A DNA stretch of 42,641 nucleotides, from NCBI GenBank assembly GCA_019248165.1, contig JAEHHB010000001.1, positions 1 to 42,641 on the forward strand, in the 5' to 3' direction. This stretch comes from Candidatus Shapirobacteria bacterium S2_F12 (GTDB lineage: Bacteria; Patescibacteriota; Microgenomatia; UBA12405). The notes beneath the pieces were generated by a model that searched no databases, was not told the origin of the DNA, and saw only the letters and a program-made list of their open reading frames with translations. The stretch's first letter is position 1. Each line of letters begins with the position of its first letter. Shown here piece by piece: positions 2,549 to 42,530 of this stretch. The translations under genes and the position numbers were made by a program.

Positions 2549-4657
2549 ATGGCTGACCAAATTAAACTTACTAAAAATCGTGACGTTGCTATGGAAAAAG
2601 TCCGAAATATCGGTATTATAGCCCACATCGATGGAGGGAAAACAACCACCACAGAGCGTCTTTTATTTTATACTGGAAATATTCACAAGATTGGCTCAGT
2701 TGACGACGGGACCACGACTACTGATTCGATGATTCAAGAGAGAGAGCGGGGAATAACCATTCAATCTGCCTGTGTCACCACTTTTTGGAAAGAACACCGC
2801 CTAAACATTATCGATACCCCTGGACACGTCGATTTTACAGCTGAGGTTGAGAGATCTCTCCGTGTACTAGACGGCGCTATTATGATTTTCGACGGCAACG
2901 CCGGAGTTCAAGCTCAATCAGAAACTGTTTGGCGACAAGCCGACAAGTATGGAGTTCCCAGAATTGCTTTTGTCAATAAAATGGATAAAATCGGTGCCTC
3001 TTTTGATAACACCTTACATAGTATCCACGAAAAACTTCGAGCCCCTGTGGTTCCAGTCGTTATTCCTATTGGTGAAGAACACGATTTCATTGGAGTAATC
3101 GATTTAATGAACCAAAAAATGATAATTTACGACAAAGATGAAGAGGGTATGGAGTTTACGGTTAAAGATGTTACTGATGACTATAAAGACAAGGTCCACA
3201 AGTATCGTTCCCAAATGGTAGAAAAAATTGCTGGTGAAGACGAAACCTTGATGGAAAAATTTCTAAATGACCAAGAGATTTCGGTTCCTGAGTTAAAATC
3301 TGTTTTAAGAAAGGCTACAATTGATAGAAAATTATTTCCAATATTTTGTGGTGCTGCTTGGAGAAACAAAGGTATTCACCCTGTTCTTGATGGAATTATT
3401 GACTATCTTCCATCTCCTTTAGACTTACCTCCAATTGAAGGATTTAATCCCGAAAATAACGAGGTTATCACTCGAAAACCAATTAAATCAGAGCCTCTTT
3501 CCGCTCTTTTGTTTAAGGTCCAGTCTGATCCACATGTTGGCACTTTGTCCTATGTTAGGGTATATTCAGGAACTCTGAAGTCTGGTTCTGAGGTCTACAA
3601 CACTACCAAACAGAAGTCTGAGCGCATTGGTCGTTTACTTTTAATGCACGCCGACAAGCGGGAAGGTCTTGAGGAAGGTTTCGCCGGAGAAATCGTTGCT
3701 TGTATTGGGTTAAAGGAATCCACCACTGGTGACACTCTTTGCGATGCTAATAGTGTAATTTCTCTTTCTCCAATTCAATTTGCCGAACCAGTCATTTCAC
3801 TCTCAATTGAACCATCAACCGCTGACGATCAAGAAAAAATGGGTGCGGCTCTAAACCGTTTAGCCATTGAAGATCCAACTTTTAAAGTTTCTTATAACCA
3901 TGAAACCGGTCAGACAATCATTGCCGGTATGGGGGAGCTATACCTAGAAATTATTGTCGATCGTCTTAAGCGAGAGTTTGGGGTCAATGTCAAAACCGGT
4001 TCTCCTCAGGTCGCTTATCGTGAAACTATTTCTCAAAATGCTGACGGTGAAGGTAAATATATCCACCAATCAGGTGGTCACGGTCAATACGGTCACTGTA
4101 AGATAAAAGTGGAGCCAAAAAATCGTGGTGAAGGGTATGAATTTATCAATGCCGTCAAAGGTGGTGCTATTCCAGCTAATTTTATTCCAGCAATTGAAAA
4201 AGGTATTAAAGAAACCCTTCAAAAAGGAATTATTGCTGGTTACCCATGCACTGATATCAAAGTCACTGTTTACGACGGAACCTATCATGAGGTCGATTCT
4301 TCTGAAATGGCATTTAAACTAGCTGGGTCTTATGCTATTAAAGATGCCTTCCAGGCCGCTAAACCTTTAGTATTGGAACCAATCATGAAATTTGAAGTTA
4401 GTACTCCTTCAGAATTTTTAGGATCAGTTATTGGTGATTTATCTTCCCGTCGAGGTCAAATTAACGGGACAGTAGATTCAGCCAACTTTACTACCATTGA
4501 TGCTTTTATCCCCCTCGAAGATGTTCGAGGATATGCAACAGTTATCCGAAGCCTAACTCAAGGTCGAGGTTCTTTTTATATGGAACCAAGTCATTATGAC
4601 CCAGTTCCTCGTGATATCCAAGAACAACTTACTACCAAAGTTAATACAGGAAAATAG
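2549..4657 (+). CDS. fusA: Translation elongation factor G
   Basis: 702 aa. G1 motif AHIDGGKTT, DTPGHVDF, NKMD. Full-length EF-G architecture. Directly upstream of tuf. Confidence 0.97.
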   Translation: MADQIKLTKNRDVAMEKVRNIGIIAHIDGGKTTTTERLLFYTGNIHKIGSVDDGTTTTDSMIQERERGITIQSACVTTFWKEHRLNIIDTPGHVDFTAEVERSLRVLDGAIMIFDGNAGVQAQSETVWRQADKYGVPRIAFVNKMDKIGASFDNTLHSIHEKLRAPVVPVVIPIGEEHDFIGVIDLMNQKMIIYDKDEEGMEFTVKDVTDDYKDKVHKYRSQMVEKIAGEDETLMEKFLNDQEISVPELKSVLRKATIDRKLFPIFCGAAWRNKGIHPVLDGIIDYLPSPLDLPPIEGFNPENNEVITRKPIKSEPLSALLFKVQSDPHVGTLSYVRVYSGTLKSGSEVYNTTKQKSERIGRLLLMHADKREGLEEGFAGEIVACIGLKESTTGDTLCDANSVISLSPIQFAEPVISLSIEPSTADDQEKMGAALNRLAIEDPTFKVSYNHETGQTIIAGMGELYLEIIVDRLKREFGVNVKTGSPQVAYRETISQNADGEGKYIHQSGGHGQYGHCKIKVEPKNRGEGYEFINAVKGGAIPANFIPAIEKGIKETLQKGIIAGYPCTDIKVTVYDGTYHEVDSSEMAFKLAGSYAIKDAFQAAKPLVLEPIMKFEVSTPSEFLGSVIGDLSSRRGQINGTVDSANFTTIDAFIPLEDVRGYATVIRSLTQGRGSFYMEPSHYDPVPRDIQEQLTTKVNTGK

Positions 4658-13830: not shown

Positions 13831-14313
13831 ATGGCTTACAATAATAATCAAAATCAACACAAAAACGAAAGATTTGAAAAACCAGTTAGTGAATTTACTG
13901 ACAAAGTTTTACAAATAAAACGGGTATCCAAAAAAACTAAGGGTGGTAATCAGATTCATTTTACTGCCTTAGTAGTCTCTGGTGATAAAAAATCACGAGT
14001 TGGTGTTGGTCTGGGAAAAGCCAAAAGTGTTGCTGATGCAATCCAAAAGGGAATTAAAAAAGCCCAAAAATCATTAATTGAAATCCCAATTGTTAATGGT
14101 ACTATTTCTAGCTCTATTCAATTAAAATTTAAAGGTGGAATTGTTTTGATTCGTCCAGGTAAGACAGGAAGTGGGTTGATTGCTGGTGGTCCAGTTAGGG
14201 CTGTGGTTGAATTGGCCGGGATAAAAGATATTGTTAGTAAAATTATTGGCTCAAGAAATAAATCGATTAATGTTTGGGCTACTCTTAAAGCTCTAAGTTT
14301 ACTTCAAAAATAA
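13831..14313 (+). CDS. rpsE: 30S ribosomal protein S5
   Basis: IKRVSKKTKGGNQIHFTALVVSGD...GVGLGKAKSVADAIQKG...GSGLIAGGPVRAV. Confidence 0.96.
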   Translation: MAYNNNQNQHKNERFEKPVSEFTDKVLQIKRVSKKTKGGNQIHFTALVVSGDKKSRVGVGLGKAKSVADAIQKGIKKAQKSLIEIPIVNGTISSSIQLKFKGGIVLIRPGKTGSGLIAGGPVRAVVELAGIKDIVSKIIGSRNKSINVWATLKALSLLQK

Positions 14314-14315
14314 CT

Positions 14316-14765
14316 ATGGAAATTTTATCAAATCTTTCAAAAGTTACTCAAAAACCAGCTCGCCGTTGTGGTCGTGGAATTGGTTCTGGTCTTGGCGGTC
14401 ACACTTCTGGTCGTGGTCAAAAAGGTGCTAAATCTAGAGGCTACATCAAACTAACTTTTGATGGTACCAAAATTAAAAAAGGCTGGATCAAAAGACTTCC
14501 TTTTTTGCGAGGTAAAAATCGACTTAATAATCAAAAAAACATAATAACCTTTAACTTGTCACAACTTAACAAGTGGTACGAGTCAGGGGACCTGGTCGAT
14601 ATTAATACCTTGTCTCAAAAAACAAAAATATCTTTTAAACGACTCAATGCTACCGTAAAGATTTTATCTTTCGGAGAATTATCCAAAAAACTTAATATCA
14701 AAGGGCTTTTAGTGTCAAAAATTGCTCATGAAAAAATTATTACTGCTGGTGGTAATATAGAGTAA
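14316..14765 (+). CDS. rplO: 50S ribosomal protein L15
   Basis: RCGRGIGSGLGGHTSGRGQKG. Starts 2 nt after the rpsE stop, so no L30 gene lies between them. Confidence 0.95.
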   Translation: MEILSNLSKVTQKPARRCGRGIGSGLGGHTSGRGQKGAKSRGYIKLTFDGTKIKKGWIKRLPFLRGKNRLNNQKNIITFNLSQLNKWYESGDLVDINTLSQKTKISFKRLNATVKILSFGELSKKLNIKGLLVSKIAHEKIITAGGNIE

Positions 14766-22929: not shown

Positions 22930-25900
22930 ATGGTATGGTTGTTTTTTAATAAAATAAAATTAGTTTTTACCTTCACTAAAACAGTACTTTACTGCATATT
23001 TATATTTAATATTTTTTATTTTTTCCGCTCTCCAGTGTTTGCTGCCACGTATTATTGGAACCAAGCGGATTGGGCTGGAGGTGAAGATACTACTAACTAC
23101 CCCAATCATTCAAATAACCAGTCCAATTGGACAAAATATTTTTCTAAAGATGTTGGAATTAGTGTCGGCTCTGGAGTCGTCACTCTACTCTCGACCACAG
23201 CTGTTGTCACCCACAGTTCTTCATCAGATTTTACTTCAGGAACTACTAATAGTACTAGTATCAATGGTTCAGGCCAAATTCAGCTTTCAATGAACTCTGG
23301 AAACGTAAGTCTGGATGGTGGTGGGGCCCATACTTGTGCTACTACTTCAGACGGTAACGCCTTTTGTTGGGGAAACAACGCGTCTGGTCAATTAGGTATT
23401 AATTCAACCACTCAATCACTTGTTCCAGCGCAAGTGAAAGGTATTGGTGGTGTTAGTACTCTAAGCGATGTTAAACAAATTTCAGCAGGAACAAGCCATA
23501 CTTGTGCCGTAAAAAATGATGGCACGGTTTGGTGTTGGGGATTAAATACGGAGGGAAGATTGGGGAACGGCAACAATACCCAGCAATTATCACCTGTACA
23601 AGTAAAAGGTCTGGGTAATACTGGGGTTTTGACTAATATTTTAAAAGTTTCTGCTGGCGACACCCACACCTGTGCTATTAGTAACAGTGGCTATGCCTAT
23701 TGTTGGGGTTCAGGAAATTGGGGGCAGCTTGGAAATAATCAACAGTCAAACTCTACTTATCCTGTTGCAGTTAGCAATTTAACCAATCTTGTCGATATTT
23801 CTACAAGCGAAAATTTCAGTTGTGCTGTAAAAAGCGATGGGATTGGTTGGTGTTGGGGTCTAGGACAATGGGGACAAATTGGAAATGGTATTTTAGCTGA
23901 TGCAAACATTATTCCTAAACAAGTAAGTGTCGTTACTAATTTTGAAAAAATCGTTACTGGATCTCATTATCACAGTTGTGGCCTGACTACTGACAAAAAA
24001 ATATATTGTTGGGGTTATGGTGAGTATGGCAATCTTGGTAGTGGTAGTTTTCTAGGTGCACAAGCAACTCCTGTTCAAGTAACAGGAATCACAGATGCTG
24101 AAGATGTTAGTGCAGGCTACTATCATAGCTGTGCCACGAGAACTAACGGTAGCGTTGTTTGTTGGGGTGGTAGCGACGATGGTCAGCTCGGAGATGGTAC
24201 TAATATTCATAGAATTAGCACTTTTGTCACCGTAAGTAATATTTCTACTGGCAGTATAGTAACTAATGGCGCTTATCAAAGTTGTGCTCTAAAGACTGAT
24301 GGTTCGGTAGTTTGTTGGGGTAATAATGGCAGTGGACGTTTAGGTAATAATAGTACTACCAATACTAATATTCCTGTAAATACGCTTAACAACACTGGTG
24401 ATGCCCAACTTTTTTTAACTGGCTTTGCTAGTCAAGGGACTTTTGTTTCACCTGTTATAAATTTAACCAAAGAAGGTGGATTATTTTATTTAGCGTTAGG
24501 TACAACTAAACCCTCTGGAACAACAATTAAGCTTGAATTTAAAACAGCTGCCTCAGAAATAGGCTTGTCCTCAGCAAGTTGGTTTGGCCCGAGCGGAATG
24601 AATACTTATTTTACTAACGATTCTTATAGCCCAGATCCAACCCTTGGTCTTTTACAATATGTTCAGTATCGTGCAACATTAGAAACGACAAATTCATTGG
24701 CCACCCCGTCACTCGGTTTAGTTCAATTTAAATATCAATCATTTAGTGATTCTGGTTTTTTAATTTCTTCTCCATACGACTCAGAAACTAATGAAAATTT
24801 AATATCTAATATTACCTGGTTAAAAAGTACTCCTACCGATACATCGGTTAAATTTCAGATTCGTACTTCTGCTGAAATGTCGGGTTTAGTGGCACAAGAC
24901 TGGATCGGGCCTGATGGCACTTCATCGACTTATTTTACAAATAATTTAGGGACGGTTACGCCTAATATCTTAAAAGACCAGTCTGCTGATAGGTGGGTTC
25001 AATACAAAACAATACTAGAAACCACTAATAATAGTTTTTCTCCAATTCTGTACGATGCCTCTATTACTTATGTGGTCAACGCTCCTCCTCAGTTTGACTC
25101 AACGTATCAAACGGATGGATTTGGCATCACTCGAGCCGCCACTCCTGGAATACTAAATTTTCTCTATAAAGTTCGTGATATTGACACTGATCAGGGGTCT
25201 GAAGGAAATCAATACAAATTATGGCCGTCTTTTCAGTACAGTATTGATAATGGTGTAAACTGGAACACTATTACACCAGATCAACTGACTGGATATACCA
25301 CAAACAATCCGATCACCTTATCTGATAATTCAACTTATTTTGAGGCGGCCACTGTTTGGGATGCTTCATCTGTTTTACCTGACACGTTTACAACTATGAA
25401 AATTAGGGTTATTGTCGACGACCACGAAGCCGCCAATAATACCACCGCCGTTACTTCCGATGCTTTTTATTTTGATACTAAACAGCCGACAATAAATACT
25501 GTAGAAGGCGGGGGAACGGGAATTAATATTAATCACAATCAACTCACCTCTTTAAATACAGATAAAACTAATAATAGTGGAGTTACACTTTATTTTTCCG
25601 CAACCGACGACTCTAATCTTTTAGTTCGTTATTCTACTAATTCTTCTTTTACGGGGGCTAATTATCAAGATTATGTTGCTTCGGTTGGGTTCACACTTCC
25701 AGTAGGTGATGGTGTCAAAACTGTTTATGCCCAATTTAAGGATATATATGGCAACGAGTCGAATGTCTATTCAGACACAATTCAACTGGATACCACCCCA
25801 CCAAGCAACCCCTCTTCAATATTATCCAAAGATATTTCAAATGAGGAAAATAATGAATATCGGATTTTTATTAATTGGCCAATTAGTATTGATCCTGACT

Positions 25901-28683
25901 GGATTGGTTATAAAATTTACAGGTTTGATGGTAGCGTCTTTGTTTTGGATCAAACAATTAACAATGTCAACACTAATTATTTAGTAAAAGATTCTTTAGC
26001 CAATCAAACAGAATATACTTACAAGGTAAGTAACTTTGACGATTTAAACAATGAATCTGTCGGTACTACCGTTATTCAAGTTACTGGTAGTACCCCTAGT
26101 GATACAACTTCTCCAATTATTAGTGGTATTAGTACTAATAATGTTGATGAAAACTCCGCCACCATCTCCTGGTCTACCAACGAAACAGCCACCACCACCG
26201 TCTTGTATTCCTTAACCAATGATAACTTTGAAACAACTAAAGGTGTCGATGGTTATAGTCTAAGCCATAGTGTTACTTTATCTGGTCTATCTCCGTCTAC
26301 AAATTATTTTTACAAACTTCGCTCAGTTGACGCTGCTGGAAACATAACCGAAACTACTGTAAGTTCATTTACTACCTTATCTGTCGATAATTCCGGCCCA
26401 ACCATTTCCACAGTTAATAATTCTAATATTACTCCTACCGGGGTCACTATTAGTTTTGCTACCAATGAGCTATCCAGTTCTTTTATTGAATATTCTACTC
26501 AATCAGGTTTTACCCAGGGTAATATTTTTGGACAAGCTGATTTAGTCACATCTCATACTGTCATTCTTAGGTCACTATCTCCTTCAACTACTTATTATTA
26601 CAAAATTAGATCAGCTGATTCTTTATCAAACGAGACCATTTCTACCCAGTATTCTTTTACCACATTAGCTGACCCATCAGATGTCACCAGTCCAACTATT
26701 TCTGGAGTTTCCGTCTCTGACATAACTTATTATTCCGCAACTATTAGTTTTACCACCGACGAAACTGCCTCTTCATTTGTAGAGTATGGTTTGACTGATA
26801 GTTACGGTAGTATCTACGGAAACAACACAGACACTACCACTCACACTATCAATCTTCCGGATAGTCTTTCTCACCAATCAACTTATTATTATCGCGTTCG
26901 AGTCAAAGATGCTGCCAACAATGAAACTATTGGTGTTGGCTATACTTTTATCACAGCTTCTAATCCAGCCGACATCACTCCACCAGTAATCTCCAATATC
27001 GATGTTGGTTTACCTTTACAAAATTCAGTTACTATTACTTGGGAAACTAACGAGCTATCAACTTCTTACATTGGATTTTCTACTGATTCTAGTTATTCAT
27101 CTGAACAAGGCAGTTCTTCTTTGACCACCAATCATTCCGTTACCTTAATTGGATTAAGCCCAGGAACTTCTTATCTATTGAGAATTAAATCAGCCGATTC
27201 TTCAGGAAATACGACCATTAATGATAATAGCGGTTCTGGTTACAATTTTATTACCCAAAGTGGTCACGCCCCTCCAGTCATCTCATCAATTGTTACTAAT
27301 AATGTTGCCACCAATTCCGCTAGAGTTAAATGGAACACTGACACTTCTGCCAATTCTTTTGTTGAATATTGGCTAAATGAAGATTCAGTTAATTGGTTTG
27401 GAAACAACACCCTTACTCAATCGCACGAAGTTACTCTTCCAAATCTCTTGTCTCAATCAACTTATCACTATCGGGTTCGATCAAAAGATTCCTCAGAGGC
27501 TGAATCAGTTTCTGCTTCTGGTACTTTTACGACACTCAATATTGGTGCAACCACAACGGAAGATTCAGACGATTTAAGGGACGAAGATTCAATCCTTGAT
27601 AGAATTAAAAACGGCACGGTTGAGTTTGTAAAAAAAGTAATAGACATCCTGCCTAGTACTTCAATCTCAGAAGACGATTTCATTGATAAAATGAATTCTA
27701 TGTCTCCAAAAATTGTTTCTTCTCCTTCAATTTCCTCAAATAATATAACTGTTGACCCGGGTGTTGACAGTATTACTGTTACCTGGACTACTGATAAAAA
27801 ATCTAATTCAATAGTTGCTTATGCTCCAGAAGATCAATACGATTCCAAAAAAGACAACCCTTATATGACTCTTGTCGGAAACCCTGATGAGTGGGTTACT
27901 AATCACTCAGTTACCATCAAAAATCTAAACCCAAATACTGTTTATCATTATGAAGTTAGGTCAAAATCCGAATATGGAAACTGGGCTGATAGCGATGATT
28001 TCACTTTTACTACTCTTTCAATTAACTCCGAAGTTAAAGATTTTCGTTTTACCGAATTAGGACAAAAGTCTGTTAGCGCCAACTGGTCTACTACTTTCGA
28101 ATCCCGCGCCATGGTCGAAGTTATTGATATCGAGAGTGGCAAAACCCTTACTAAATTTGAAGAAAAAGGTTTTAATCGTAACCACGAATTCGCGACTGAT
28201 CTACTACAAGCATCAAATAATTATCAATTAAAAGTTATAACAGTAGCCAAAGATGGTACTCTTTCTAAAGAATCTTTTTTTCCTTTCTCTACCACAACAA
28301 GTTCTGGGCCACCCATTATAAGTAATGTTCGTGTATCCAATGCGTTAATCTCAGGTTCTATTGAACAAGTCCAAACCATAATTTCTTGGAAAACAGACAA
28401 ACCATCTACTTCTAGAATTTTATATAATGAGGGGATGTCTGATGATTTATCTCAGTCTAGTAATCTTGATAAATCTTATGTTGTCGACCATATAGTAGTT
28501 ACTACCAACTTTAAACCAGGTAAGGTTTATAAATTTAAAGTTGAGAGCACTGATTCTAGCGGCAATAAATCTCTTTCTAAGGACTTTTTAATCATGACAC
28601 CGAAAACTCAAGAGTCAGTCATTAACCTTATTATTGACAATTTTATGGAGTCTTTTTCATTTGTTACAAAAGGAAAGAAATGA
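22930..28683 (+). CDS. Giant secreted/cell-surface protein: signal peptide, 7-blade RCC1-like beta-propeller, two beta-sandwich modules, about 9 fibronectin type III-like modules
   Basis: 1917 aa uninterrupted ORF. Hydrophobic N-terminus ending VFA-AT. Seven repeats of the type HTCA..DG...CWG.N..GQLG (about 23302-24397). Paired W.GP.G....YFT...YVQY+..LET modules. From about 25795 to about 28600, repeated modules of the type TSPxISxv....sATIsWtTdE.sss.veY....HsvtL.gLsPsT.YyY+v+S.D..GN. Confidence 0.85.
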   Translation: MVWLFFNKIKLVFTFTKTVLYCIFIFNIFYFFRSPVFAATYYWNQADWAGGEDTTNYPNHSNNQSNWTKYFSKDVGISVGSGVVTLLSTTAVVTHSSSSDFTSGTTNSTSINGSGQIQLSMNSGNVSLDGGGAHTCATTSDGNAFCWGNNASGQLGINSTTQSLVPAQVKGIGGVSTLSDVKQISAGTSHTCAVKNDGTVWCWGLNTEGRLGNGNNTQQLSPVQVKGLGNTGVLTNILKVSAGDTHTCAISNSGYAYCWGSGNWGQLGNNQQSNSTYPVAVSNLTNLVDISTSENFSCAVKSDGIGWCWGLGQWGQIGNGILADANIIPKQVSVVTNFEKIVTGSHYHSCGLTTDKKIYCWGYGEYGNLGSGSFLGAQATPVQVTGITDAEDVSAGYYHSCATRTNGSVVCWGGSDDGQLGDGTNIHRISTFVTVSNISTGSIVTNGAYQSCALKTDGSVVCWGNNGSGRLGNNSTTNTNIPVNTLNNTGDAQLFLTGFASQGTFVSPVINLTKEGGLFYLALGTTKPSGTTIKLEFKTAASEIGLSSASWFGPSGMNTYFTNDSYSPDPTLGLLQYVQYRATLETTNSLATPSLGLVQFKYQSFSDSGFLISSPYDSETNENLISNITWLKSTPTDTSVKFQIRTSAEMSGLVAQDWIGPDGTSSTYFTNNLGTVTPNILKDQSADRWVQYKTILETTNNSFSPILYDASITYVVNAPPQFDSTYQTDGFGITRAATPGILNFLYKVRDIDTDQGSEGNQYKLWPSFQYSIDNGVNWNTITPDQLTGYTTNNPITLSDNSTYFEAATVWDASSVLPDTFTTMKIRVIVDDHEAANNTTAVTSDAFYFDTKQPTINTVEGGGTGININHNQLTSLNTDKTNNSGVTLYFSATDDSNLLVRYSTNSSFTGANYQDYVASVGFTLPVGDGVKTVYAQFKDIYGNESNVYSDTIQLDTTPPSNPSSILSKDISNEENNEYRIFINWPISIDPDWIGYKIYRFDGSVFVLDQTINNVNTNYLVKDSLANQTEYTYKVSNFDDLNNESVGTTVIQVTGSTPSDTTSPIISGISTNNVDENSATISWSTNETATTTVLYSLTNDNFETTKGVDGYSLSHSVTLSGLSPSTNYFYKLRSVDAAGNITETTVSSFTTLSVDNSGPTISTVNNSNITPTGVTISFATNELSSSFIEYSTQSGFTQGNIFGQADLVTSHTVILRSLSPSTTYYYKIRSADSLSNETISTQYSFTTLADPSDVTSPTISGVSVSDITYYSATISFTTDETASSFVEYGLTDSYGSIYGNNTDTTTHTINLPDSLSHQSTYYYRVRVKDAANNETIGVGYTFITASNPADITPPVISNIDVGLPLQNSVTITWETNELSTSYIGFSTDSSYSSEQGSSSLTTNHSVTLIGLSPGTSYLLRIKSADSSGNTTINDNSGSGYNFITQSGHAPPVISSIVTNNVATNSARVKWNTDTSANSFVEYWLNEDSVNWFGNNTLTQSHEVTLPNLLSQSTYHYRVRSKDSSEAESVSASGTFTTLNIGATTTEDSDDLRDEDSILDRIKNGTVEFVKKVIDILPSTSISEDDFIDKMNSMSPKIVSSPSISSNNITVDPGVDSITVTWTTDKKSNSIVAYAPEDQYDSKKDNPYMTLVGNPDEWVTNHSVTIKNLNPNTVYHYEVRSKSEYGNWADSDDFTFTTLSINSEVKDFRFTELGQKSVSANWSTTFESRAMVEVIDIESGKTLTKFEEKGFNRNHEFATDLLQASNNYQLKVITVAKDGTLSKESFFPFSTTTSSGPPIISNVRVSNALISGSIEQVQTIISWKTDKPSTSRILYNEGMSDDLSQSSNLDKSYVVDHIVVTTNFKPGKVYKFKVESTDSSGNKSLSKDFLIMTPKTQESVINLIIDNFMESFSFVTKGKK

Positions 28684-39501: not shown

Positions 39502-39564
39502 TTTTTGCGCCTTAGTAAAAAGACACCTATTTCTTGTTAAGTAATAATTTTGTTACCTATAATA

Positions 39565-39593
39565 TTGACAATTTATGTGTTTAAAGTTATAAT
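39565..39593 (+). promoter_or_regulatory. Consensus sigma-70 promoter of the 39.8-42.1 kb cassette
   Basis: TTGACA (39565-39570), exactly 17 nt, TATAAT (39588-39593). A second candidate, TTGTTA-18-TATAAT, ends at 39563. Confidence 0.6.
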
Positions 39594-39826
39594 CCCGCGA
39601 CAATAAAAATATCAAAAATACGTGTATAGCAACGTATAATTTAATATTTTTAGAACTTTAACAAACTAAAGAGTGTTTATTATCATGTCAACAGTTTTAT
39701 AGACTCTACTAAGAGTAGAAACAGTATATTTCTATTTTCAGTGGAGTCTATAAAAAGGAGAATGTTGTTGATGGTTTAACAAAAAATAGGTACAAAAAAA
39801 CAAACTAAGAAAAGAGGTGTCAGGAA

Positions 39827-40324
39827 ATGAAGCAGCGGTTTTGGATTGTGTCACTAATCTTTGTCGTCGTTGTTGTCTTGTGTGGATTGCTTTTTTTGGG
39901 TGTCTTCCAGTCAAATAGAAATGACTATTCAATAACCGAAAAAACAGCGGTTACAAGCAGTCCTAATCCTTCAGTTGAAAGTAATTCAGAACAGCCCCAA
40001 GGTTCAAACGGAAATCTTTTTGGTTGGCCTTGGAGTTGGAGTTGGGGATTTGGCGGTAATAGCGACAATTCAGGCTCAAGTTACAACTCCGATTCGAATA
40101 GTAATTCGGGATCGAACTCTGACTTTGGATCAAATTACGACTATGATTTTGGAAACGATTCGGGTTCTAGTTGGGATTTCGGTCAAGACAGTTGGGGTTC
40201 CGACAGTTGGGATTTTGGTTCCGACAGTTGGGGATTTGATAGTTTTGATTCGGGAAGCGACAGTTGGGGTTCCGACAGTTGGGATTTTGGTTCCGACAGT
40301 TGGGGCGGCAGTGATGGTTGGTAA
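39827..40324 (+). CDS. Hypothetical TM-anchored protein with an acidic Ser/Asp/Gly/Trp/Phe low-complexity repeat ectodomain
   Basis: N-terminal hydrophobic helix FWIVSLIFVVVVVLCGLLFLGVF, then GWPWSWSWGFGGNSDNSGS...(SDSWG/SDSWDFG)n. AGAGG SD upstream. No recognisable family. Confidence 0.65.
   Translation: MKQRFWIVSLIFVVVVVLCGLLFLGVFQSNRNDYSITEKTAVTSSPNPSVESNSEQPQGSNGNLFGWPWSWSWGFGGNSDNSGSSYNSDSNSNSGSNSDFGSNYDYDFGNDSGSSWDFGQDSWGSDSWDFGSDSWGFDSFDSGSDSWGSDSWDFGSDSWGGSDGW
40187..40305 (+). repeat. Perfect 47-nt direct duplication (40187-40233 and 40259-40305) built from a GACAGTTGGG sub-repeat
   Basis: GACAGTTGGGGTTCCGACAGTTGGGATTTTGGTTCCGACAGTTGGGG occurs twice with a 72-nt period (24 codons). 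It encodes DSWGSDSWDFGSDSWG. Confidence 0.9.
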
Positions 40325-40349
40325 TTAACAAATTCGAAAGGAGATAAGT

Positions 40350-40910
40350 ATGAATAATAATTTAACTGATAAGTTCATGGGGTCGTCCACTGGAAACATT
40401 GTTGAATTTACCCCTGATATCGAAAAGACTCCGGTTAATCAATTTAAGATCAAAGGAACCGGGGTTCTTGTTGCCCAAAATCTCAAGGATGGACAGCTTT
40501 ATCCTAAGGGAGAGTCCTATCCAGTGTTCTTTTTGGACAACAACACTATGATAATCCGGCTAAACTATGGATTCTACTATTTTGACCGACCCACAATTTT
40601 AACAGGCGAATCAGCCAAAGAATTTGTCCCTCACGCTATTGAATTTGGTAAAAGAAATCAAGCCCCAGGTAGCTATTCATTTCAATGGCAAGGGATGGAA
40701 TTGTCGTTTATTGACATCGGTTATTTGATCTACGCAAACAGGAGTGGAAGTTGTCACCTCAATGACAAAACCGCCATTCGGTTTATACTTGCCCAACTTG
40801 GCAACGGAGACAGGTTTTACCTCGAAGATTGCAAAAACGGGACCGATCGTTGTTGGTTGGGTACATTTTTAGGGAGCAGTCTAGAACAAAACATTCTCAG
40901 CATCAACTAA
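40350..40910 (+). CDS. Hypothetical soluble protein (186 aa), no recognisable family
   Basis: AAGGAG SD 9 nt upstream. No TM segment. Aromatic-rich. C-terminal Cys cluster SGSCH...EDCKNGTDRCW. Confidence 0.6.
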   Translation: MNNNLTDKFMGSSTGNIVEFTPDIEKTPVNQFKIKGTGVLVAQNLKDGQLYPKGESYPVFFLDNNTMIIRLNYGFYYFDRPTILTGESAKEFVPHAIEFGKRNQAPGSYSFQWQGMELSFIDIGYLIYANRSGSCHLNDKTAIRFILAQLGNGDRFYLEDCKNGTDRCWLGTFLGSSLEQNILSIN

Positions 40911-40931
40911 AAAAAAGGAGGGCTTGTTGAC

Positions 40932-41498
40932 ATGTCTAATTCAAAAATCTCACCCAAAGGTATCAAAGGTTGGTTGTTTCTGTTATTAGAGTTTATTTTT
41001 CTCGGAGTACTTTTCTTCATTGCTTTGGAATTTGTCGCCCCTAATACTCAGGTAACTCAAGATACCGTAAAGAGTCTTACTGGGTATTTTATAAAAATCG
41101 GGGGTAAATTTCTCTTGGCCATTGTAATCAGTTTTCTTGAAGTGTGGGTAGTTTTTAAACATGTATTGGACACAAAACTATCCAACATGTTAGACAAACT
41201 AAAGATTCACTACAACGATAGTTATGCCATTATCTTGGTAGGTTTGATTACAAGTGTTGCCATAATGATTGCTTCCGTGGGTGACTCATCGGTACAATAT
41301 TTGTTGTACCAGATACTTACTCGAGGAAGTATTGGTTTTGCTGTTGCCACTATTTTCACTGTGATATTTGCAAAAATATTAGGTATGAATAGTATGGATG
41401 AGCTTCGTTTTTGGATAGACGAAAAGGCCAATAATTCCTATGTCATCATTATTGTCGGTGTCCTAATAGTTTCTACAATCCTGTCAATGAATGCCTAA
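40932..41498 (+). CDS. Hypothetical polytopic membrane protein with an internal duplication (tentatively DUF350-like)
   Basis: GGAGG SD. About 5 hydrophobic helices. Repeated N(D/N)SY(A/V)II(L/I)VG(L/V).I....I segments at residues about 94-116 and about 167-188. Confidence 0.6.
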   Translation: MSNSKISPKGIKGWLFLLLEFIFLGVLFFIALEFVAPNTQVTQDTVKSLTGYFIKIGGKFLLAIVISFLEVWVVFKHVLDTKLSNMLDKLKIHYNDSYAIILVGLITSVAIMIASVGDSSVQYLLYQILTRGSIGFAVATIFTVIFAKILGMNSMDELRFWIDEKANNSYVIIIVGVLIVSTILSMNA

Positions 41499-41515
41499 TC
41501 ACAAGAGGAGGACTT

Positions 41516-42061
41516 ATGACAGAAATTTTTGGGATAGTACTGTTAATAGTTTTTTTGATCTATCTATTTAGGTCACACGTCTTAGATCTGATTGGTGGCT
41601 GGTTGATACCGATTGTTCGTAAACATTGGATATCGGTAACCAATTGGTTTCAGAGAACTAATGTTAAATCAGAAAAATCGGACATTGAAGTTCAATACCA
41701 CCAGTGTCAACAAGTTCTATCATCAATTAAAAAAGCCCGATACGACACCGAAACCTCGATTGAAGAAATCAACTCAGAAAATAGAAAGCTCGAACTTGCG
41801 ATCAAAACCGCCTCTGATTCCCACCTGTCGACAGAAGATTATGACAAGCGGATAGAAAGAAACAAAACGCAACAGCATAAATTACTGATACAGTGCAATG
41901 AATTGGTAACAAAAGAACAAAGCCTTGAATCCATTATGGGAAAATTAAATATTGGTGTCCTTTTGACCACTTCAGAATTAGACAATCTAACCAGGGAAAT
42001 TTCTCGGTCAACAGAATATGTCAATAACATTTTGAACCAGTACCCAAAAGACACTTTTTAG
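41516..42061 (+). CDS. Hypothetical N-terminally TM-anchored coiled-coil protein
   Basis: GAGGAGG SD. TM IFGIVLLIVFLIYLF, then about 120 aa of heptad-like charged sequence (IEEINSENRKLELAIK...KEQSLESIMGKLN). Any PspA/LemA-like relationship is unproven. Confidence 0.6.
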   Translation: MTEIFGIVLLIVFLIYLFRSHVLDLIGGWLIPIVRKHWISVTNWFQRTNVKSEKSDIEVQYHQCQQVLSSIKKARYDTETSIEEINSENRKLELAIKTASDSHLSTEDYDKRIERNKTQQHKLLIQCNELVTKEQSLESIMGKLNIGVLLTTSELDNLTREISRSTEYVNNILNQYPKDTF

Positions 42062-42084
42062 TAAAAGACATCATTATGTCTGAT

Positions 42085-42148
42085 AGTCGGCTCTGGAGAG
42101 GGGTGAATGCTTGCAGTCTATCTGCCCATTCATCCCTCGAGCCGGACT
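42085..42148 (+). other. Long imperfect GC-rich hairpin (about 25 bp) between the cassette and the hammerhead
   Basis: AGUC-GGCUC-(UGGA)-GAGGGGUGAAUG...GCAG-UCUAU-CUGC...CAUUCAUCCCUC-GAGCC-(G)-GACU. No U-tract follows on either strand. Confidence 0.6.
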
Positions 42149-42152
42149 ATTA

Positions 42153-42203
42153 ACGTTAAATCGATGTGTATCGATTCTGATGAGTCCAAAAGGACGAAAA
42201 CGT
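42153..42203 (+). ncRNA. Type III hammerhead self-cleaving ribozyme (predicted cleavage between 42158 and 42159)
   Basis: ACGUU-A | AAUCGAU-GUGU-AUCGAUU - CUGAUGA - GUCC-AAAA-GGAC - GAAA - ACGU. All invariant core positions are present (C3 U4 G5 A6 N7 G8 A9, G12 A13 A14, A15.1-U16.1, H17=A, G10.1-C11.1). Stem I 7 bp, stem II 4 bp, stem III 5 bp and open. Confidence 0.85.
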
Positions 42204-42237
42204 AAAAAACTCTGTATTAAGGTTTAAGCCCACAAAA

Positions 42238-42530
42238 AACCCCCAAAGAAACTGTTAAGCTGGATTCTGTTTATGTGTCATCTATCTATTCTCTTTACCT
42301 GGAGCTCTCAAAAACTAGATATTAACGCCCCATCTTAAGATTTCCACCAGGAGGATGCTCGTTTCACTTGGGCTCGCCGTATCTTCTTGCGAAGGCGGTT
42401 CGCTTACTCGTCTCTGTAGCATTGCCGTCCAATCACTTGGACTCCTACTTATTTAGATCCTGTGTTTTTTGTGGTCCAGACTTTCCTGTCCGAAAAATCG
42501 GACTTGACACTTCAATTTCTTTAGAGGTCA
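42238..42530 (-). ncRNA. rnpB: RNase P RNA (bacterial type, compact, about 290 nt; ends approximate)
   Basis: The reverse complement contains the universally conserved P4 strands ACAGGAAAGUCUGGAC and AACAGAAUCCAGCUUA (compare E. coli GAGGAAAGUCCGGGC and ACAGAACCCGGCUUA). Also GCUACAGAGA...ACCGCC, a 16-bp P1 (CCUCUAAAGAAAUUG with CAGUUUCUUUGGGGG), P2 (GUGUCA/UGACAC) and a P3 hairpin (GUCCGA-UUUU-UCGGAC). Confidence 0.85.

Follow-up and report, generated by a model that had tools for sequence, protein, structure and literature searches.

A hairpin and a type III hammerhead ribozyme at the end of an inserted operon in a Shapirobacteria-like bacterium, a pairing that recurs in phage and environmental DNA

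Hundreds of hammerhead ribozymes have been described in bacteria, many of them near integrases or prophages and flanking genes or short gene blocks, and transcript processing has been proposed as their role (Perreault et al. 2011; PMC3088659). A 2019 review counts the hammerheads of bacteria and phages in the thousands and leaves their function unresolved; it also records the proposal that twister and hammerhead ribozymes in bacterial 3' untranslated regions (UTRs) and polycistronic transcripts alter the stability of parts of the transcript (PMC6765202). Here, we describe a type III hammerhead at positions 42153–42203 (plus strand) of a 42,641-nucleotide (nt) stretch of Candidatus Shapirobacteria bacterium S2_F12 (GenBank contig JAEHHB010000001.1; hereafter, the window). 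The ribozyme closes an inserted operon of orphan genes, the cassette, directly behind a long hairpin, and it points into the 3' end of the convergent rnpB gene, which encodes RNase P RNA. We hold with high confidence that it is a genuine, selected hammerhead. The best explanation of the locus as a whole, which we consider probable, is that hairpin and hammerhead together give the cassette mRNA a hairpin-protected 3' end without a terminator.

Like the type III hammerheads of bacteria, prophages and phages (RF00008; PMC3088659), the window ribozyme has the identical core, a junction open at stem III, a cleavage triplet of the NUH type and an intergenic position at the end of a short gene block. 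It differs from the usual RF00008 hammerhead in its sub-threshold score and in its UUA triplet, where GUC is usual. It also differs from the prophage contexts of Perreault et al. (PMC3088659), since it lies in the chromosome of a candidate phyla radiation (CPR) bacterium, has no integrase or phage gene nearby, and occurs as a lone copy, not as half of a flanking pair. The proposal made for ribozymes in 3' UTRs assigns the same role as ours; it is untested for natural loci, and the review gives no conserved partner hairpin (PMC6765202). With the class of phage and metagenome hammerheads assembled below, the window ribozyme shares an indel-free 55-nt architecture, loop I UGUGUA, loop II AAAA, a stem I of 6 base pairs (bp) plus a closing U–A or U–G pair, stem II GUCC/GGAC, and a 5' hairpin, frequent in the class, after the stop of a co-oriented open reading frame (ORF). 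Unlike most viral members, it has a hairpin of 27–28 bp as against 6–16 bp, a cellular host, and a convergent RNA gene rather than an ORF downstream.

Two further systems bear comparison. At the RNase III sites of T7 early mRNA, a host protein enzyme cuts within a hairpin, and the 3' hairpin protects the upstream mRNA without termination of transcription. The likeness to the window is one of working mode only, namely that a read-through transcript would be cut beside a hairpin to leave a hairpin-protected 3' end; the window RNA, however, would cut itself, 8 nt past the hairpin, and there is no sequence or structural homology between the two. RiboJ-type insulators are engineered elements of the 5' UTR in which the hairpin lies 3' of the hammerhead and is retained on the downstream mRNA. 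They likewise join a hammerhead to an adjacent hairpin and yield a defined, structured RNA end regardless of context, whereas the window hairpin lies 5' of its ribozyme. Searches of a limited literature library gave no match for hammerheads in CPR bacteria or for a hairpin-hammerhead module, which is weak evidence of novelty, and the class sequence was not found in the accessible part of the supplements of Perreault et al. (PMC3088659). The kind itself is known, and this hammerhead type is already common in phage DNA; the regular 5' hairpin partner, the CPR chromosomal example and a conservation equal to that of rnpB appear undescribed in the literature searched.

Read directly from 5' to 3', the 51-nt RNA consists of ACGUU (42153–42157), the single residue A42158, stem-loop I (42159–42176), in which AAUCGAU (42159–42165) and AUCGAUU (42170–42176) form 7 bp around loop GUGU, the core residues C3–A9, CUGAUGA (42177–42183), stem-loop II (42184–42195), in which GUCC (42184–42187) and GGAC (42192–42195) form 4 bp around loop AAAA, the core residues G12, A13 and A14 (42196–42198), and AACGU (42199–42203), which pairs with the first segment to complete a stem III of 5 bp that includes A15.1–U16.1 (A42199–U42157). 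Stems I and II are closed by loops and stem III is open, which is the type III topology. All 16 pairs are Watson-Crick, and the pairs adjacent to the core, A42199–U42157, G42184–C42195 (G10.1–C11.1) and A42159–U42176, are intact. Residue H17 is A42158, so that the triplet is UUA, non-G as NUH demands, and from hammerhead numbering self-cleavage is predicted 3' of A42158, between 42158 and 42159. The first-pass annotation had arrived at the same three helices and the same cut; the assignment now draws in addition on a structural descriptor, a covariance model of the class, covariation in the family and conservation across cassette copies. Applied to both strands of the window, our own relaxed descriptor (stems of at least 4, 3 and 3 bp, with G–U allowed) matches 42153–42203 and nothing else. 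Over 400 versions of the window simulated with a first-order Markov model, it found 0.15 matches per window, and a match of at least 16 bp arose in 1 of the 400, bearing out the earlier view that the structure is unlikely to be accidental. No second ribozyme was found at the 5' end of the cassette or elsewhere by the descriptor and the class model over the 42.6 kb, or by Rfam. An origin from a viroid-like or circular RNA was ruled out by the single copy, on one strand, inside a chromosomal operon.

To place the ribozyme among its relatives, IMG/VR was scanned with the pattern CTGATGAGTCC-N2-8-GGACGAAA, which gave at least 126 matches; among the 126 listed, 33 are type III hammerhead-like, and most of these share the architecture of the window hammerhead. 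Members of the class have a stem-loop I of 18 nt, whose loop is UGUGUA or UGAGUG, and a stem II of the form GUCC-NAAA-GGAC. A covariance model, R1, built from 17 viral hammerheads (alignment A2) with the window sequence excluded, scores window positions 42151–42205 at 64.1 bits (E = 2.4e-16), covering model positions 1–55 of 55 without indels or non-canonical pairs, and its next-best match in the window reaches 10 bits. Because the 17 viral sequences had been picked with a pairing filter, we made an unbiased metagenome scan with a pattern in which loop I, the core, stem II and GAAA alone are fixed and stem III and the 5' strand of stem I are unconstrained. It returned at least 120 loci, with 118 usable sites. 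Among the 118 sites listed, stem I is fully paired in 116, stem III has at least 4 bp in 115 and H17 is G in none; the triplet is UUA in 6 and UUC in 25. In alignment A3, which joins 103 metagenome sequences with the window (104 in all), 97.9% of stem cells pair, compared with 69% after shuffling and 31–45% when the partners are slid, and the covariation score is 0.754 against 0.16 in shuffles. Ten of the 16 pairs are changed on both sides, and all four Watson-Crick types occur at most positions of stems I and III. Judged by this alignment, the hammerhead family is large and clearly real, and the window sequence is unexceptional within it. The class is very abundant and is found mainly in phage and environmental DNA. 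The exact 40-nt hammerhead has 0 matches in JGI metagenome contigs; neither the hammerhead nor a viral hairpin with its hammerhead had a blastn match among GenBank phages, so the carriers of the class cannot be given as named phages. In hammerheads, fast cleavage at physiological Mg2+ requires loop or bulge I to make a tertiary contact with loop II, and the conserved class loops UGUGUA and AAAA suggest a selected contact of this kind.

Copies of the cassette itself allow a finer comparison. Contigs L001 and L327–L334, found through homologues of the cassette proteins ORF2, ORF3 and ORF4 among 5.8 billion proteins, carry the same cassette, and wherever they reach far enough it occupies the same locus, with an AI-2E transporter gene upstream (L327, L332) and rnpB downstream (L328, L332, L334). 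R1 scores the hammerheads of these copies at 64.9 bits (L328 and L329), 58.9 bits (L332) and 58.3 bits (L334). In the two diverged copies, L332 and L334, the DNA of ORF4 is only 54% and 59% identical to the window (the ORF4 proteins 39–42%) and the spacer behind the ribozyme 54% and 50%, while the hairpin is 81% identical in both, the hammerhead 94% and 96%, and the 3' part of rnpB 95% and 97%. The ribozyme thus equals the RNase P RNA next to it in strength of conservation, even as the adjacent proteins diverge. Its core is invariant in four cassette copies, and all substitutions preserve pairing: the stem III pair C16.4–G15.4 becomes A–U in L332 and L334, and a U–A pair becomes U·G in stem I of L332 and at the loop-closing position in L328. 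Nearly all changes in the hairpin preserve pairing as well. The first-pass annotation had imagined relatives with stems disrupted and no compensation, and the copies present the opposite picture. By these substitution patterns, the RNA structures of both hammerhead and hairpin are under purifying selection.

The hairpin is long and bulged (about 42082–42150, plus strand; 27–28 bp in about 69 nt), as given by the predicted folds and by the four copies. It begins past the ORF4 stop at 42059–42061 and ends 2 nt 5' of the ribozyme. The earlier description of a hairpin at this place was right, except that it gave a gap of 4 nt and a length of 64 nt. Its predicted energy is about −41 kcal/mol alone, and the 186-nt region around it folds at −61 kcal/mol (z = −5.8). 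The architecture is the same in four cassette copies, with three pairs changed on both sides, and all copies retain a 4-nt internal loop, UGGA/UGGU; the hairpin itself matched no Rfam family. A scan for sites resembling intrinsic terminators between ORF4 and rnpB found none. A further, small hairpin, GACAUCAUUAUGUC, lies at 42066–42081 between the ORF4 stop and the long hairpin and is partly conserved in L332 and L334.

Within the cassette, the hairpin is always paired with the ribozyme, and the same pairing recurs among members of the class from phages and the environment. Viral ribozymes of the class lie 20–53 nt past the stop of a co-oriented ORF and have directly on their 5' side a GC-rich hairpin without a U-tract, often GUGUCUUCAAAGACAC. 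Of 30 viral members, 80% have an upstream 40-nt segment that folds at −10 kcal/mol or below, compared with 11% of random windows and 3% of downstream windows. Among the 104 members of the metagenome set, a 5' hairpin abuts the ribozyme in 52%, compared with 21% of random positions (Fisher p = 2e-10). The first-pass annotation had suggested that the ribozyme trims the cassette mRNA and leaves the hairpin as its 3' end, and of its proposals this one is best supported by comparison, as the arrangement is found again in phage and metagenome members.

Cleavage by hammerheads yields a 2',3'-cyclic phosphate and a 5'-OH end, and 3' exonucleases act poorly on a short tail that follows a strong hairpin. 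We infer transcription of the site, its cleavage and a stabilising effect, taking the chemistry from the established hammerhead family. In the mechanism we propose, polymerase starting at the cassette promoter would transcribe ORF4 and the hairpin and run on into the ribozyme, which would fold and cut itself between A42158 and A42159. The mRNA would be left with the hairpin, an 8-nt tail and a 2',3'-cyclic phosphate, and would make a poor 3' exonuclease substrate; the ribozyme body and the read-through RNA, antisense to rnpB, would be freed as a separate fragment with a 5'-OH. In phages, the same module would stabilise the mRNA of one gene while transcription runs on into the next. We put forward more tentatively, as a proposition that may well prove too broad, that hairpin plus type III hammerhead is a widespread, undescribed module of 3'-end formation, one that would provide a terminator-like, exonuclease-resistant end with transcription continuing, set between genes in phages and closing an inserted operon in this CPR bacterium. 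The window locus is unusually clean, with one ribozyme closing a compact operon that is equipped with a promoter-like site of its own, and it turns 'transcript processing' into a specific and testable hypothesis in which hairpin and self-cleavage add up to a protected 3' end. If this is true, the module would supply the many hammerheads of bacteria and phages with their first concrete and testable function, and would be a ribozyme counterpart of the T7 RNase III sites.

Several observations weigh against this proposal or against the ribozyme beneath it. At gathering thresholds, Rfam reported only rnpB and one tRNA in the window, with no Hammerhead_3 match; in E-value mode, Hammerhead_3 (RF00008) gave 25.7 bits (E = 0.0018 on 301 nt), below its gathering threshold of 48.5, in an alignment to 42153–42203 that misplaces stem III. 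The first-pass annotation had counted a score below that threshold as grounds for rejection, and such a score is formally what was obtained. It is uninformative for this site, however, because other tested members fail too: eight other class sites in seven loci, all perfect in structure, score 29.4–45.4 bits, every one below 48.5. The gathering threshold under-calls the class, which is a limit of the model and no evidence against the structure, and since all tested members fall below it, routine annotation probably misses the class. As to folding, the minimum-energy structure predicted for the 51-mer (−13.5 kcal/mol) has a stem I that runs on into the core, and the active fold is at −11.5 kcal/mol; a competing, non-active minimum-energy fold is seen in other class members too. 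UUA is a slower triplet than GUC in the kinetics of minimal hammerheads. Cleavage does not stop polymerase, so antisense rnpB RNA could still be made. Finally, the abutting hairpin is frequent but not universal, as the 52% of the metagenome set illustrates, and the viral counts overstate independence, because many of the viral contigs come from related phages.

A different purpose for the same cut is that the ribozyme is kept mainly as an insulator of rnpB, severing read-through mRNA from about 280 nt of RNA antisense to RNase P RNA and so sparing the essential rnpB transcript from duplex formation or co-degradation. The geometry invites this idea: the ribozyme lies 43 nt from the rnpB 3' end and points into it, the order hairpin, hammerhead, rnpB holds in every cassette copy that extends far enough, and nothing terminator-like intervenes between ORF4 and rnpB. 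Yet phage contigs carry the same hairpin-hammerhead pair between co-oriented ORFs and have no rnpB close by. In relatives that lack the cassette, the problem does not arise and the ribozyme is absent, and cleavage would not prevent synthesis of the antisense fragment. From the phage pairs and the ribozyme-less relatives, it follows that protection of rnpB can only be a secondary benefit, and the earlier suggestion that it was the original purpose does not survive the comparison; as the main function, we regard it as unlikely. Slightly less likely again is that the cut matures some other RNA, either by freeing the hairpin as a small RNA or protein-binding element or by giving the downstream RNA (in phages, the next gene) a structured 5'-OH end that stabilises it. 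The hairpin is indeed conserved beyond pairing, in that every copy keeps the internal loop, and in viral members the next co-oriented ORF often starts 8–40 nt past the ribozyme. In the window, however, nothing coding lies 3' of the ribozyme, where there is only antisense rnpB; the hairpin has no Rfam match, and no second processing site was found 5' of it.

The two remaining alternatives deny the site a function. It could be an inactive relic of phage-derived or mobile DNA, without function in its host, considering that the class is abundant in viral contigs and that the cassette is an insertion of orphan genes. A relic, however, would hardly stay 94–96% identical beside DNA that is 50–59% identical, with all changes preserving pairs, and the cassette holds no phage or mobility genes, so that we strongly disfavour this account and consider it very improbable. 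The other is a chance match, in which the hairpins would be of the usual kind between convergent genes and look like a hammerhead by accident. The sub-threshold Rfam score could be cited for it, and so could the number of windows scanned, since among many windows an event seen once in 400 could occur. Comparative data refute it: the class model gives the site its full-length score, an abundant, covarying family has exactly the same loops I and II, and the structure is conserved across cassette copies with compensatory change. We give it next to no credence.

The cassette occupies 39502–42231 (2.7 kb, plus strand), from the stop of the AI-2E transporter gene to the 3' end of rnpB, and is organized as one plus-strand unit. 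Blastn against 15 related species shows the transporter stop followed by the rnpB 3' end within about 1–45 nt (window position ~39500 joined to ~42225–42235); the transporter abuts rnpB in all 15, and 39502–42231 is therefore an insertion. To judge from these junctions, insertion of the cassette took place in a single sub-lineage of Shapirobacteria-like CPR bacteria. A search of 80 related CPR loci (1.17 Mb) with R1 gave no hammerhead, from which it follows that the ribozyme belongs to the cassette and is no ancestral feature of rnpB; a role as a conserved partner of rnpB was rejected on the same count and on the abutting genes of the 15 species. The junction between transporter and rnpB (39501/42232) is a variable gap: it is empty in the 15 species, filled by the cassette in the window lineage, and in two close relatives filled at the same site by a minus-strand DUF1861 gene (L122, 6446–7440; L124, 914–1903). 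The first-pass annotation had also suggested a small mobile element. The cassette is an insertion, as that idea would have it, but no mobility gene, phage gene or terminal repeat was found in it or at its ends, and no terminal inverted repeats were seen at its junctions. A direct repeat beginning AAAAGACAC... at 39518 and 42046 was considered as a duplicated insertion site and set aside, since by a rough estimate several such repeats are expected by chance in 3 kb of AT-rich DNA.

The cassette opens with a promoter-like site at 39565–39593 (plus strand), TTGACA and TATAAT separated by 17 nt, which agrees with the consensus at 12 of 12 positions and whose hexamers are conserved in L332. A 5' leader of about 230 nt follows (39594–39826, plus strand), which contains the inverted repeat I2 (39695–39755). 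It is conserved with L332 (at about 200–500 of that contig) and highly so, while the ORF proteins of the two cassettes are 39–71% identical; with no matching Rfam family, it is a candidate cis-regulatory leader RNA on the strength of this conservation. Four plus-strand ORFs come next. ORF1 (39827–40324, 165 aa) has an N-terminal hydrophobic segment followed by low-complexity S/D/G/W repeats and no significant family match; three 36-nt tandem units at 40168–40305 encode its motif SWDFGSDSWG. ORF2 (40350–40910, 186 aa) is an orphan with 3 homologues among the 5.8 billion proteins, all in cassette copies. ORF3 (40932–41498, 188 aa) is hydrophobic and probably membrane-spanning, with four homologues and a weak Pfam DUF350 match (19.9 bits, below cut-off). 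ORF4 (41516–42061, 181 aa) combines an N-terminal hydrophobic segment with a probable coiled coil, evolves fast and has one close homologue; its sub-cut-off matches are probably coiled-coil noise. Against Pfam, PHROGs, PADLOC and NCBIfam, none of the cassette ORFs gave a match above curated cut-offs or at a convincing E-value, and tblastn found no relatives of the cassette proteins in the viral hammerhead loci.

Downstream, rnpB occupies 42246–42521 on the minus strand (Rfam RNaseP_arch, 105.2 bits) as a convergent neighbour outside the element, which confirms the earlier placement of the ribozyme in the cassette 3' UTR, directed at the 3' end of rnpB. The best Rfam model for this RNA is the archaeal RNaseP_arch, not a bacterial one, with 89–115 bits in eight relatives (L125–L134); a literature search for RNase P RNA in Patescibacteria found no paper. 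The other genes of the window are bacterial and include an EF-G/EF-Tu and ribosomal-protein operon region, RecA/RecX, RNase Y, YchF and MiaA. The L15 gene comes immediately after that for S5, with no L30 gene between them (13831–14765), and absence of the L30 gene at this position is a typical CPR trait. Relatives of the AI-2E transporter are labelled Candidatus Shapirobacteria, other Microgenomates or Patescibacteria. On its gene content, the genome is that of a Shapirobacteria-like CPR bacterium. Elsewhere in the window, a 1917-aa protein with RCC1 repeats and fibronectin type III domains adjoins an ABC/FtsX pair (22930–28683).

Inside ORF4, 22 nt at 41957–41978 are 82% complementary to the hammerhead core and stem II (42174–42195). 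Pairing of this segment with the core (inverted repeat I4) was considered as a regulatory switch and rejected, as the left arm is not kept in L332 and L334. On the minus strand, the same segment resembles a decayed hammerhead (9.4 bits in L328); from the sequence comparison, the likeness is probably due to chance.

Some viral contigs carry 2–3 class hammerheads within a few kb, each 3' of a gene, and many of these share the hairpin GUGUCUUCAAAGACAC; examples are L020 (3316–3370, 4182–4237 and 5993–6047) and L051 (2477–2529 and 4428–4482). The genes 5' of these multiple sites fall into two recurring protein families to which no function was assigned, and the genes upstream of viral hammerheads in general are diverse and mostly of unknown function. 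In the viral contig L011, positions 3733–3765, about 530 nt 3' of a hammerhead, match the DUF805b RNA motif of Rfam (RF02914) at 42.7 bits, above its gathering score. In a metagenome subfamily (L235, L261, L269, L290, L293, L249 and others), the upstream hairpin takes the form GGGAGTTCTCA..AAAACTCCC and GTTCTTT often follows downstream, and this shared hairpin and motif suggest a larger conserved unit around the ribozyme.

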